Positions 33,639-42,600 of a stretch of 64,000 nucleotides of DNA are shown piece by piece. A program made the position numbers. The stretch lies in the NCBI RefSeq assembly GCF_016903815.1, contig NZ_CP069973.1; one strand, given 5' to 3'. This DNA comes from Escherichia coli. GTDB taxonomy: Bacteria > Pseudomonadota > Gammaproteobacteria > Enterobacterales > Enterobacteriaceae. The stretch's first letter is position 1, and each line of letters begins with the position of its first letter.

Positions 33639-36600
33639 AAAGCGTCGCATCAGGCACTATGTACAAGATGCCGGATCATGCATCCGGCAATTCACTTAAA
33701 AACGGTGACCCGCTTCCAGCGGAACCGCTTCTTCACCAGCCTTAAACACATAAGTGGTGTTCGGGCCACCCAGCGTAGCGTGACCTTTACTCACCGTGAT
33801 CCAGTTACCTTCCGGTAGACCAATAATTGTGAGTTCTGGCGCGACGACCAGCAGTTCGCGAATACGCTGCTCACGCGTTTCACCTTTATGGCCTTCCGGC
33901 AGCGCGTTGGTGAAGTGCGGGTTGATTTGCAACGGGAACAGATTCAGCGCATCGAAACCTTGTGGATCGACAATCGGCATATCGTTGGTGGTACGAATGG
34001 TTGGGCAAGCAAGGTTAGCGCCAGCGCTCCAGCCAATATACAGCGCGCCACGTTTAACCACGTCAGTAATTGGTGCCAGCAGCCCGCGCTCGCGGCACTG
34101 TTTCAGCAACTGGAAAGTATTACCGCCGCCGACAATCACGATCTCAGCATTTTCAATCGCGGCAACGGGATCGACAACGCTATGAATACCGGTGACAGAA
34201 ACACCCAGCGAAGCGAGAACCGCAGCCGTTTTCGCTGTGTAATCATCCCAGGTCTGCGTTACGCCAGCGAAAGGGATAAACACCGCTGAGCGGCGACCCT
34301 GCAACTGTTCAGCAATTAGCGGCAGTGCATGTTCCAGCCAGGCTTTACCCGGCAGCGTCGAGTTACTCAATAAAAGCAGTTCCATTACTTCTCCGGTTAG
34401 TAAGAAATCACGGGAGGCATGCTACCACTGCGAATTTAACCACTTACTGACATGGCTCACGATGTCACGTATTGCACCGGGCGCTGAGACTGATGACAAA
34501 CACAGCATTGCCTGATGCGCTACGCTTACCAGGCCTACCAGATAACTGCAATATATTGAATTTTCGAGATTATGTATGCCGAATAAGGCTTCATTCCGCA
34601 TCCGGCATAAACAATGTGTACTTTGCCACCAATTTGAGCGCCCCTTAAGGCGCTGATATTTTTTATCCTTCTCATGCAAATTGTGCTGCTTCAGCAATCA
34701 GCCGCACATCCGGTCGCGAAGTTGCCGCGGCGACCAGCCAGCGACATGCAGAGTTAAGTAGCGCGATTAATCATGGGAAATTGCCTCTGCATGAGTGAGC
34801 AGATATTGCTCCGCCTCACCGGACCAGATCCCCTGATGACGCGCCAGAATTGCCGCCAGTGCTTGATCCTGAATCTGCGTGAGTGACATAAGCGGCAGGT
34901 ATTTCCCGGTATACACCAGCTTTTTGCCGCCGCCGACGGCAGGCAATTCAAGCGTGGTTTCGCCCGCGGCATTCAGCCCAAGAATATGTGTTACCACTTT
35001 TGCGGCCTGCACTTTTTTCTCTTCAATCAATTTGACTGCTGCGCGCATGTCATCGGTATTGCCGCCTGACGTGCCCACGTAGTGGGTAAATGCATAATGC
35101 ACATCGTAGAAATTAATTGGCGCGCTGAAATGTTTATCCTGCGGTCCGGCGAAGAAATTCAGGCAACCATCTGTCGCCAGCAAGGAAGAGGCGAGAGTCA
35201 CCAGTCCTTCATTAGGCACAAAGACGAAAATATCATCGAAGCCGTGACCGCCACTCAGTGCCATTAACGTATCAAATGCTGCATCGGCAGCATTGAGATA
35301 ATGAATCAGTGTTTGCGGTTCTGATGGATAGTGCTTGCGCGCATAACTCAATTTGTCGTTGTCGGTATCGGTAATGACGAGCAGCGACGGGTTAACGGGT
35401 CCATGTAGCGCATAATCAATCGCCAACAGTCCCATTGGTCCGGTGCCGCCGAGGATCAGCGTGCGCCCTTGCGGGCGAATCCCCATCGTGTGGTTATAAC
35501 TACCTTCCTGAAGATGATAGTTGGCGTTGAACGCGCCAATCACGCAGGAAAGCGGTTCAACCAGCGAGCCTTCAAAATAGGTTTCGCCGTCGTATGCCAG
35601 CAGGCAATCTTGTTCCATGACCTCGTTGGGAATAACCACATGCGTGGCTTCGCCGCCTACCCACGGGAAGGAGTAGCCGGGGCAGTCCGGGCGGTCGGGG
35701 AGTTGCAGGTTGGCCTGAATCACATAACGCTGACCCGGCTGGAATTTGTGCTGCCACTTTTTACCCACGGCCAGAATATCGCCGCAAAACTCGTGGCCGA
35801 TGATGATGGGGTTGGTCGCCACATCGTCGGGTACTTTTTTATGGTTTTCACCCAGATTGGCCTCTTTCCAGGAAGAGAGGCACAGGCTGTCGGTGACCAC
35901 CGTCGCGAGGATTTCATCCTCCTGCATTTCAGGAAGATCAAAGGTTTCCAGGCGTAAATCACGTTTACCATAAAGACGCAGAGCTGTTGTTTTCATAAAC
36001 CACCTCATGTTGAGCGATGGCCCCGGCAGTCGTGCCGGGGCGAAGAATCAGGACAGGAAGCCCAGCGCATTGCCGATAATCCCTAAGCCAAACAGGGCGA
36101 AAATCAGCCATACCGGGTTAATTTTTTTGTTGAGCAGACGAACCATCAGTAGCGTCAGACCGAGCGCCAGCAAACCAGGGCAAAGTTGGTCGAGAATGTT
36201 CTGCACGGTCATGGTGACGGTGGAGCCATCGGCGGCATGCGTTTGTGAAACCACCAACGGTACGTTGATTGACGTCCATTTGGTCACCAGCACGCCCATC
36301 ACAAACAGTCCGAGAATCGACGCGCCTTCGGTGAGTTTTTGCAGCACATTCCCGCCCATATCGCTGACGATATTCACCCCTTTGCGAAAGCCGAGCTGTA
36401 GGCCATACCACTTCATCGCCAGACGCACCGCATTGAAAATAAAGAAAAACAGCAGCGGGCCGAGAATGTTGCCCGAAAGTGCCAGAGATGCGCCGAGCGC
36501 GGCGGTAATCGGGCGCAGCGTTCCCCAGACCAGTGGATCGCCAACTCCTGCCAATGGTCCCATCAGACCGACTTTGATGCCGTTAATGGTACCGTCATCA

Positions 36601-39600: not shown

Positions 39601-42600
39601 CACCAACAATTCCGCTGTATTTTTCTTCACTCATGGCAATGCCAATGGAATACCGCGCCTGCTTTAATTTATTCATTTCGATAGAGAGTGTTTTTTCGCT
39701 CATATTCGTTTCAACCATTGCGCCGTGAATATCATAAAAGCGCGAGCAAATATCGCCAGCAACCTGGCGGGCATTCAGGTCGTCACTCTCTTCACCACCA
39801 TAAAACGCATGCCAGTTAGCGCCGTCGCGAATGGCCGGTGAGCCAATTCCCACCAGGGCGACATCCAGATTATCCCAGTAGGCAGAGATGGTTTTAAAGT
39901 GCTGAGACTGCATGATCCCATTACGAATTAATGGGTTATCCAGCAGAGCCGGAAAATCCGCGAGATGCGATTCCCCTTTCAGCTTCGCTGCCGCGCTGTA
40001 GGTTAATGTGTTTACGTGATAGCGGCTTTCGAGTTTACCGGACGGTCCGCCAATAATTGGTACGCAGATTAACTGCCGCGATTGCCCCGCCTGCGGCAAG
40101 TTTTCAACCAGTGCGCTCACCGCGCGACCCCAGGAAAAACCGACAATATCGCCAGGCTCCAGCAAGCGATCCAGCAGTTGCGCGCCGTGTAACCCCATCA
40201 TCGCCAGTTGAGTCTCTTCATCCTCATCATTTCCCGACACCACCACAACGTCTTTCAGGCCAAACTTTTGCTTCAGTTGCTGCTCCAGCCAGAGATTTTC
40301 GTTGTAGTCATAGTTGATGGCGATGGTGACAATTCCCTGATCGCGGCCTCGTTTAAGCAAGCGGCTGATGGTGGTGCGGTAAATACCCAGTTCGCGCGCG
40401 ATTTGCGCCTGCGTCATATCCTGTTCGTAATAGAGTTGGGCAATCTTCACAATCAAACGGATATCGTCACTGTTTTCCATTGCCGCCTCCTGGTTCTGCA
40501 CATTTGTGCAAATACGCTTTCTCACCGCTTGATCTGATATAACCCCATCATGATGGCCTTTCAAAGCGATTTTTCACTCTTTGCATGGGGAGAAATAGCG
40601 CTTTCTCTTGCACATTTGTTTCTCTGCCTAGTAGTCATCAGCACAGTTGTGCAGCGATTCGTAATATGTTGATTATCCTTATTTTGCCAGGCAAATTTGC
40701 ATCGTACTTCCGGAGACACTTTTGTGATAAAAGGCGTGGCAGATCACATTTAATTTCGACGTTGCCGCATAACCCTGTTTTTCCCCGCTAAGAGGTACGG
40801 TATATTCCGCGTTTTACAGGAGAATTTATGCTGCCCGACTCATCAGTCCGTTTAAATAAATACATCAGCGAAAGCGGAATTTGCTCACGCCGCGAAGCGG
40901 ATCGCTATATCGAGCAAGGCAATGTGTTCCTTAATGGCAAGCGAGCCACCATTGGCGATCAGGTGAAACCCGGCGACGTTGTGAAAGTAAACGGTCAGTT
41001 GATTGAGCCTCGGGAAGCCGAAGATTTGGTACTTATCGCCCTGAACAAGCCCGTCGGTATTGTCAGCACCACCGAAGATGGCGAGCGCGATAACATTGTC
41101 GATTTCGTTAACCACAGCAAACGCGTGTTCCCGATTGGCCGCCTGGATAAAGACTCCCAGGGGCTGATTTTCCTCACCAATCACGGCGATCTGGTGAATA
41201 AGATCCTCCGTGCGGGTAACGATCATGAGAAAGAGTATCTGGTGACGGTCGATAAACCGATTACCGATGAATTTATTCGTGGTATGGGGGCGGGGGTGCC
41301 GATCCTCGGGACGGTGACGAAAAAGTGCAAAGTCAAAAAAGAAGCGCCGTTTGTCTTCCGCATTACCCTGGTGCAGGGGCTGAACCGTCAGATCCGTCGC
41401 ATGTGCGAGCACTTTGGTTACGAAGTGAAAAAGCTGGAACGTACGCGCATCATGAACGTTAGTTTAAGCGGCATTCCGCTGGGGGAATGGCGTGATTTAA
41501 CTGACGATGAGTTAATCGACCTCTTTAAGCTCATTGAAAATTCCTCTTCCGAGGCAAAATCTAAAGCGAAGGCCAAACCGAAAACTGTAGGCATTAAACG
41601 TCCAGTCGTTAAGATGGAAAAAACGGCGGAAAAAGGCGGTCGCCCGGCGTCCAACGGTAAGCGTTTTACCTCGCCGGGGCGTAAAAAGAAGGGGCGCTAA
41701 TCAGCGCCTGCCGCGCGTCGACGTATTTGCTGACCAGCTAAATGACGCTTCAGGATCCGGTTTATAAGCCTGCTTTTTCTTTAACTGGCGGGCTTTTTTC
41801 GCTTCAGCCTCACGCTCGACCATTAATTTATCGATGTACTCTTTCTTAATGCTGTTGGTTTCGGAGTTGGTCAGTACGCGACCATGCGCAATCCGCGCCC
41901 GATCCAGCAGTGTTTTAAGTTCACGCTGCTCGCGTTCAGTCATCTCTTTTTGGGTAATACGGGGGAGTGCCATGCTGGTGCCCTCAGTGAGCCAGAGAGT
42001 TCAGTGTACGGGAATTCGTTTGCGAGCAGAACTGATAATATTCATTTTGCCTTCTCTTAACTATTTATCTCTTTCGATAATTAATTAGAGATGCAGATAA
42101 AAAAATTAAAGGCAATTATTCTCCGATAAAGACGTTGGTTAACAGAGTACAGGCTCGTTTATTGATGAGCATAGTGACAAGAAAATCAATACGGCCCGAA
42201 ATATAGCTTCCAGGCCATACAGTATTTACTCAAACAAATTACTATGCAGTTTTTGCACCACCTGCTCGGCATCTTCGCCGGGCACCAGGAAGCACAGGTT
42301 ATGGCTGGATGCGCCGTAACAAATCATGCGAATGTTGAACGGTTCCAGTACGCCGAATACCTCTTTGCCAACGCCGCAGGCTTTTGACAGGTCATTGCCA
42401 ATCAACGCGACCAGCGCCAGACCTTCCTCCACTTCTACCCGGCATAGTGCAGACAGCTCCATCAGCAGAGATTGCGTCAGCAAGGTATCGCCAGTGGAGG
42501 TTGAACCGGTGGTATCAAGGGTTAATGCCACGCTCACTTCTGACGTGGTGATTAAGTCTACCGAAATATTATGCCGCGCGAGGATGCCGAAAACTTCCGC

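Follow-up and report, generated by a model that had tools for sequence, protein, structure and literature searches.

What is the DNA that separates pepE from rluF in some Escherichia coli strains and is missing in K-12, and which of the two arrangements is the older one? We considered these questions for a stretch of 64,000 nucleotides of the E. coli contig NZ_CP069973.1 (hereafter the window), in which seven genes lie between pepE (33696–34385, minus strand), the flank on one side, and rluF (40828–41700, plus strand), which flanks the sorC side. The initial annotation of this DNA, made from its sequence alone, had taken the seven genes for an operon for L-sorbose utilisation (sor). We are highly confident that the block is indeed the chromosomal sor operon of E. 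coli, an orthologue of sorCDFBAME from Klebsiella pneumoniae. The operon is intact and ordinary, and it belongs to a system that is already known and well studied.

The sor operon and its pathway

Gene limits were taken from the RefSeq annotation of E. coli strain 222 (NZ_CP020516.1, a urine isolate), which is 100% identical to the window over the searched region 33600–41800. The map of open reading frames (ORFs) and this annotation both give seven intact, co-oriented genes on the minus strand in the order sorC-sorD-sorF-sorB-sorA-sorM-sorE, as had been proposed. The first gene, sorC (39533–40480, 315 aa), encodes a SorC-family regulator with an N-terminal helix-turn-helix and a sugar-binding domain, and sorD (38657–39463, 268 aa) encodes a D-glucitol(sorbitol)-6-phosphate dehydrogenase of the short-chain dehydrogenase/reductase (SDR) type. 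They are followed by the genes for four subunits of a phosphotransferase system (PTS): sorF for EIIA of the mannose class (38240–38647, 135 aa), sorB for EIIB (37746–38240, 164 aa), sorA for EIIC (36883–37680, 265 aa), and sorM for EIID (36048–36872, 274 aa). The last gene, sorE (34767–35996, 409 aa), encodes L-sorbose-1-phosphate reductase, a zinc-type dehydrogenase of the medium-chain dehydrogenase/reductase (MDR) class.

The mechanically listed ORFs for sorE, sorM, and sorC are longer and begin upstream of the true starts. The ATG of sorC at 40480 is preceded by AGGAGG, and the coding conservation across genera begins there, with the upstream sequence diverging between genera. Of the limits proposed before (34767–40625), the start holds and the end falls in the control region upstream of sorC. 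The spacing of the genes is tight, as stated, although gaps of about 10 nt occur only twice (9 nt between sorD and sorF, 10 nt between sorA and sorM), the other three measuring 51–69 nt. An ATGA overlap reported for sorF and sorB was misread: the junction is TGATG, with a single base in common to the stop and the start.

The identity of the operon is carried first of all by its regulator and its IIB subunit. SorC aligns over its full length with K. pneumoniae SorC (PDB 2W48), 275 of the 315 residues being identical (87.3%, 613 bits), and SorB shares 139 of 160 residues (86.9%) with the sorbose-specific IIB of the same species (PDB 1NRZ). The K. pneumoniae operon of the Lengeler laboratory has the same seven genes, the same order, and the same pathway logic; compared with it, the E. 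coli orthologue described here sits between pepE and rluF. The remaining PTS subunits and SorD exceed the cut-offs of their NCBIfam models: SorF scores 145 bits with TIGR00824 (cut-off 98), SorA 424 bits with TIGR00822, the EII-Sor model (cut-off 340), SorM 472 bits with TIGR00828 (cut-off 293), and SorD 495 bits with the sorbitol-6-phosphate dehydrogenase model NF004817 (cut-off 304). SorB is likewise above the cut-off of TIGR00854, with 223 bits. Phosphorylation motifs are recognisable as AHG near the N-terminus of SorF and DDRLIHGQV in SorB.

SorE carries the Pfam domains ADH_N and ADH_zinc_N, is named sorE, L-sorbose-1-phosphate reductase, by RefSeq, and has a sorbitol dehydrogenase and a ketose reductase as its nearest solved structures; no structure of SorE itself was found in PDB. 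A scan with SorE over one genome per bacterial species recovered 80 loci, 36 of them enterobacterial, and in these 36 the SorE orthologues are 84–98% identical and occupy the same place. The most variable of the Sor proteins is SorF, with 74–91% identity across enterobacterial genera and 5–9 differences among E. coli strains.

Several points weigh against so firm an assignment. NCBIfam offers no model specific for SorE, and the best SorE match (52 bits) is far under its cut-off. The direct comparison with K. pneumoniae, which had been proposed for all seven proteins, covers the two with solved structures, SorC and SorB, and bears the proposal out for both. Moreover, K. pneumoniae sensu stricto is not among the 80 loci recovered, and SorD, SorF, SorA, SorM, and SorE were compared instead with loci from Raoultella, K. 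indica, and the K. oxytoca group.

The mechanism of the sor pathway is established knowledge of the system. In the strain studied, the four-subunit mannose-class Enzyme II (SorF as IIA, SorB as IIB, SorA as IIC, and SorM as IID) would import L-sorbose and phosphorylate it to L-sorbose-1-phosphate, which SorE would reduce to D-glucitol-6-phosphate; SorD would then oxidise this compound to D-fructose-6-phosphate, which would enter glycolysis. SorC, the product of the first gene, would keep the operon repressed without sorbose and activate it with sorbose. The same sequence of intermediates (sorbose, sorbose-1-phosphate, D-glucitol-6-phosphate, fructose-6-phosphate) is given in PMC13410766, which cites Sprenger & Lengeler 1984, and the activator role of SorC with sorbose and its repressor role without it are given in PMC12817954, citing Wöhrl et al. 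1990.

The operon has also been studied in E. coli itself. In the sequence types (ST) ST131 and ST648, no genes are induced more strongly by sorbose than the seven sor genes, which confer a competitive advantage; sor knock-outs and one knock-in alter competitiveness, and in ST131 a sorE knock-out blocks the corresponding step and sorbose use is lost (PMC12817954). In the enteroaggregative E. coli (EAEC) strain 042, sorEMABFDC (Ec042-4384-4390) adjoins rluF and the strain grows on sorbose, and MG1655 is without the operon and Sor-negative (PMC2808357). The copies of EAEC 042 and ST131/ST648 thus have the same genes at the same rluF-adjacent locus, and the DNA of other sor-positive E. coli is 97–99% identical to the copy in the window. 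The latter is distinguished from them by an Arg at residue 192 of SorD and by an insertion sequence (IS), IS1397, 1.1 kb beyond pepE. Since the literature describes exactly such an arrangement, it supports the sorbose interpretation given initially, as well as the remark that this is a described system rather than a new one (PMC2808357, PMC12817954).

Could the block encode another PTS of the mannose family, for mannose, N-acetylgalactosamine/galactosamine, or fructoselysine/glucoselysine, with a regulator that only looks like SorC? This would be suggested by the generic character of the matching NCBIfam subfamily models, which are named for “mannose/fructose/sorbose” and do not assign the substrate by themselves. 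The nearest relative of this kind in E. coli is ManXYZ, of the same superfamily with IIA, IIB, IIC, and IID. However, ManX is a IIA–IIB fusion, whereas IIA and IIB are encoded here by separate genes, and the man operon has neither linked dehydrogenases nor a SorC regulator. The PTS subunits score far under the cut-offs of the aga, gam, and ManX equivalogs (211 bits against 400 for ManX), so the better match to a man- or aga-type system that the initial annotation had named as decisive was not found. Both dehydrogenases that the sorbose pathway requires lie in the operon, two of its proteins are 87% identical to K. pneumoniae SorC and the sorbose-specific IIB, sorbose use is altered in published knock-outs and knock-ins of this E. 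coli operon (PMC12817954), and growth on sorbose separates EAEC 042 from MG1655 (PMC2808357). We therefore regard a different mannose-type substrate as hardly credible and this alternative as already effectively refuted. Gene order, the orthology of SorC and SorB, the PTS and SDR model scores, the position, and the absence from K-12 all hold for the sor operon.

History of the locus in E. coli

The whole block is absent from K-12. In the annotation of MG1655, pepE and rluF are adjacent and 211 bp apart. The alignment of the pepE–rluF interval, proposed earlier as a check, was carried out by a blastn search of the window with the K-12-type locus and places the true edges of the non-K-12 DNA at 34467 and 40792 (6,326 bp): on the pepE side the last homologous position is 34466, and homology begins again at 40793, which leaves 35 bp to the start codon of rluF. 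In place of the 6,326 bp, K-12 has 95 unrelated bp (2328–2422 of the K-12-type locus L002). Because the junction lies so close to the rluF start, the promoter region of rluF must differ between the two alleles. Mapping of the whole window confirmed that the sor block is the largest stretch without a K-12 counterpart, the second being the 1,436-bp IS1397. The expected location near metH was also right, as iclR-metH-yjbB-pepE immediately precede the block, colinear with K-12.

Within the species the locus falls cleanly into two alleles. Of 5,426 complete E. coli genomes, 2,865 have the sor block and 2,557 have the 95-bp allele, one copy each, which together account for 5,422. The sor alleles are 97–100% identical among genomes (up to 3% difference), and the 95-bp allele is nearly invariant, with at least 99% identity in 2,545 of the 2,557 genomes. 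The published frequency of sor is 9.6% in phylogroup A, 12% in B1, and more than 86% in every other phylogroup (PMC12817954).

This polymorphism within E. coli would speak for the block as a horizontally acquired accessory island between pepE and rluF, with the K-12 arrangement as the ancestral one. The initial annotation had spoken of an accessory island, and such a history would also agree with the 95 unrelated bp at the K-12 site, which carry no recognisable deletion scar, and with the repetitive extragenic palindromic (REP) elements and an IS nearby. Nevertheless, the sense of acquisition is contradicted by synteny across genera, which shows an ancestral locus that has been lost in K-12 and in about half of the E. 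coli genomes. The operon is identical in make-up and order in all 36 enterobacterial loci and lies beside rluF in 29 of them; it is located elsewhere in four, and in three the contig ends inside the operon. As far as their contigs reach, the rluF-linked loci are bordered by yjbD and lysC at one end and by pepE and yjbB at the opposite end. They extend the same rluF-adjacent position to Escherichia whittamii, E. albertii, cryptic Escherichia, Pseudocitrobacter, Citrobacter, Klebsiella, Raoultella, Enterobacter, and Cedecea, the loci including at least eight Citrobacter species, the Klebsiella oxytoca group, K. indica, and several Enterobacter.

The divergence of the Sor proteins is on a par with that of the flanking housekeeping genes. 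Towards Klebsiella/Raoultella, the identity is 83–88% for SorC, 87–90% for SorD, 75–79% for SorF, 87–90% for SorB, 93–96% for SorA/SorM, and 85–87% for SorE, compared with 89% for PepE, 91–94% for RluF, 89–90% for YjbB, and 87–88% for LysC. The GC content of the block is usual (0.42–0.57, with an average near that of the flanks), and its edges show no integrase, tRNA, or direct-repeat boundary, so that genomic-island features are lacking. Because the rluF-linked position is conserved across genera and the Sor identities resemble those of the flanking proteins, the sor locus appears to be ancestral to the Escherichia, Citrobacter, and Klebsiella lineages.

For K-12, the most plausible history is one derived loss, which now prevails in phylogroups A and B1. 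A nearly invariant 95-bp allele opposed to diverse sor alleles fits a younger, derived origin of the former, and a single loss agrees with the frequencies in PMC12817954, including the prevalence of sor in each phylogroup besides A and B1. What speaks against this direction is that the 95 bp have no explained origin: a comparison with the sor block at word size 7 gave no match, the search of 45 enterobacterial loci gave matches of the pepE- or rluF-proximal flank and no relative of the 95 bp themselves, and no second site was found in the E. coli genomes, each of the 2,557 having a single copy. Loss rather than gain is therefore concluded from synteny, with no visible deletion mechanism. Taking both sides together, we consider horizontal acquisition of the block very improbable and prefer the ancestral locus with a loss in the K-12 lineage.

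A further difference from K-12-type strains lies on the other side of rluF. Between rluF and yjbD, these strains have a 132-bp insert (L002 3331–3462) that has inverted ends around a BoxC-like core (cccctcgccccttcggg...gggtgagggg). It is missing in the window, where the two genes abut (junction 41700/41701), and in the sor-negative strain H14; because H14 is also without it, the insert is independent of the sor polymorphism.

The sdhL scar and the sorD allele

In 33 of the 36 enterobacterial loci, sorE is followed by an eighth gene, sdhL, for a shikimate-dehydrogenase-like protein of 270 aa; in nearly all cases the ATG of sdhL and the stop of sorE have 8 nt in common. The related loci of Klebsiella (oxytoca group, K. 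indica) and Raoultella have this gene, whereas the window has only a 112-bp scar of it (34663–34774, minus strand), recognised by tblastn and by alignment with the full sdhL of E. coli IMT16316, E. whittamii, and Escherichia sp. The 8-nt overlap of the ATG with the sorE stop is preserved in the scar too. Only the first 21 codons are detectable by tblastn (34774–34712), and codon 7 has undergone a nonsense change, CAA>TAA. A clean internal deletion of 700 bp follows, with its junction at 34716/34717 and a 2-bp (CG) microhomology, and the final 54 bp of sdhL remain, running to 34663. A second “hairpin-like” stretch that had been noted at about 34700–34730 is actually the 5' remnant of this deleted gene.

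The intact SdhL of E. whittamii scores 462 bits with NF009202 and shares 66.8% identity across 268 residues with HI0607 (PDB 1NPY), an orphan shikimate-dehydrogenase-like enzyme from Haemophilus influenzae. HI0607 is an orthologue of the gene scarred after sorE, with the difference that sdhL in the window is no longer a gene. The 700 bp are kept in 177 of the 5,426 complete E. coli genomes. In the published work, sdhL was seen only in ST648, the copy of which differs in this respect from the one studied here, was termed an ST-specific insertion “upstream” of the operon, and was found to be induced by sorbose (PMC12817954). The data across genera reverse this reading of an ST648-specific insertion. 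They give good support to sdhL as the ancestral terminal gene, with most E. coli, including the present strain, carrying the 700-bp deletion. The seven-gene E. coli operon may accordingly be a decayed form of an ancestral eight-gene sorCDFBAME-sdhL, in which sdhL would have been translationally coupled.

What could be the function of the lost gene? The assayed activity of SdhL, on shikimate, is weak, and no other activity is known to have been assayed. Perhaps SdhL acts on a sorbose-related substrate, with 5-keto-D-fructose as a candidate, although we offer this as speculation and think it unlikely. 5-keto-D-fructose is reduced by a reductase of the shikimate-dehydrogenase family (PDB 7COK; PMC7954740). 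Three SdhL homologues outside Enterobacterales (one from Lautropia and two on metagenome contigs, 68–71% identical) lie in unrelated contexts, and none of the three has sorbose-type PTS genes beside it, which lowers the case for a sorbose-specific function.

The pepE-side end of the block is formed by several repeated structures. Directly after the sdhL stop lies a GC-rich hairpin AGCGCC-N6-GGCGCT (34637–34654), which is conserved in E. whittamii and Escherichia sp. and is probably the 3'-end or terminator structure of the operon; as its T-run sits on the plus strand, we infer its role on the sor strand rather than read it directly. Between the operon and pepE there are one REP unit (34510–34538), found by a match to the REP pattern, and one REP-like palindrome (34569–34615), found as an inverted repeat. 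The REP units and hairpin reported earlier at this junction are accordingly present as one unit, one REP-like palindrome, and the GC hairpin. The REP pattern matches twice in the window (the second copy at 62350) compared with zero expected by chance.

The REP spacer is common to E. whittamii and absent from ST648-like E. coli. In E. albertii (L044 3540–4030), the spacer between sdhL and pepE has been amplified into a tandem array of three or four units, each about 150 bp long. This amplification, together with the absence from ST648-like E. coli (L089), points to a hot spot of REP turnover.

The other peculiarity of the present copy concerns SorD. Its residue 192 is Arg (codon 38888–38890), while the three other E. 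coli strains compared have Gly, as do 40 of 40 SorD orthologues down to 56% identity. This Gly belongs to the Pro-Gly motif of SDRs that follows the catalytic Tyr-x3-Lys, and it is also Gly in the aligned solved SDRs. A 43-nt probe specific for the Arg codon matches 8 of the 5,426 genomes, all clinical isolates (strains 222, 103, AR_0015, 2779, 5283, 98210, 98192, and 98224). Because G192R hits an invariant residue and the allele is rare, the glucitol-6-phosphate dehydrogenase step may be impaired in the R192 lineage. This is a further point to be set against a fully working operon, since these genes may not be sufficient for the complete sorbose pathway in the strain studied.

Taken to its end, this argument would make the operon present but catabolically defective: G192R would inactivate SorD, and sorbose use would rely on SrlD/GutD or be lost. 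The invariance of the position and the scarcity of the Arg allele speak for such a defect. On the other hand, the sorD reading frame is intact, the R192 allele persists in at least eight sequenced clinical isolates, and the defect is predicted from the sequence rather than from enzyme activity. We hold inactivation of SorD to be possible, though somewhat doubtful, and continue to regard the operon as an ordinary one. A second glucitol-6-phosphate dehydrogenase, that of the glucitol operon, could mask or compensate a SorD defect.

Control region, neighbouring features and significance

The sor control region (40481–40792, minus strand) was delimited by a phylogenetic footprint of 11 genera and species. 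Its most conspicuous element is the palindrome TGCACAAATGTGCA, of the form TGCACA-N2-TGTGCA. The perfect copy (40497–40510, minus strand) is placed between a candidate promoter and the sorC ribosome-binding site, overlapping the leader immediately upstream of the latter. Two further copies lie upstream on the same strand, one with three mismatches (40609–40622) and one with two (40640–40653), their centres being 112 and 143 bp from that of the perfect copy and 31 bp from each other. With up to three mismatches allowed, the palindrome has five distinct sites in the 64 kb, and three of them fall within 157 bp here. The three conserved palindromes are probably operators for SorC. In the literature searched, we found no description of SorC DNA targets.

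A weak promoter candidate on the minus strand consists of a -35 TTTGAA (40565–40560) and a -10 TATATC (40541–40536) with 18 bp between them; the -10 is contained in GGTTATATCAGATCA, which is invariant in the alignment of sorC upstream sequences. A simple sigma-70 consensus scan found no promoter in the spacer between sorC and rluF, so the promoter call relies on conservation. The same holds for the operators, and both circumstances weigh against a firm assignment in this region. A terminator consensus scan gave a single strong hairpin of terminator type, and its T-run belongs to the other strand. A poor core promoter without a consensus match fits a sor promoter that would depend on an activator.

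Further upstream, the footprint shows a conserved box, AAATGTGATC...CACAAAAGTG (40751–40717, minus strand). It is kept even where rluF is not the neighbour and hence belongs to sor control. We tried its first part, AAATGTGATC (40751–40741), as a CRP site. The left half matches the CRP consensus perfectly, the right half is poor, and the position is about 210 bp upstream of the candidate -10; we leave the box unassigned.

Several other differences from K-12 were observed in the window. IS1397 (IS3 family, two ORFs with a programmed frameshift) occupies 32204–33639 between yjbB and pepE, is flanked by a TAA duplication, and has the ends TGAACTGCACCCC...GGGGTTCAGTTCA. It is inserted exactly in the loop of a REP palindrome, where K-12 reads gacgcg-TCA-agcgtc, which fits the preference for REP loops that IS1397 reportedly has. 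The gene xylE, which encodes the D-xylose/proton symporter, is missing: psiE lies next to malG (50949–50953), whereas in K-12 about 1.8 kb including xylE separate the two, and tblastn for XylE gave no match anywhere in the window. yjaA is absent as well: between yjaB and the 5S rRNA gene, 280 bp (16348–16627) that resemble duplicated rrn terminator sequence take the place of 521 bp in K-12. arpA, annotated as espL4, is present (23113–25296). The combination of yjaA-negative and arpA-positive is presumably the Clermont typing pattern of phylogroup D/E-like strains, and such a pattern would fit a sor-positive urinary isolate. An Rfam scan of 32000–44500 gave the lysine riboswitch upstream of lysC (43667–43863; full length, 99.5 bits) as its sole match, an expected and ordinary feature.

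The sor operon thus accounts for the largest difference from K-12 in the window and adds nothing new in kind. Being frequent in all phylogroups but A and B1, its locus is a practical marker. For SorC, a dual activator/repressor, the conserved palindromes supply candidate operator sites, and the G192R change is flagged as a possible loss-of-function sorD allele, hypomorphic or null, in a small clinical lineage. If SdhL does act on a sorbose-related substrate, its function would become testable, and most E. coli would be running a trimmed pathway.

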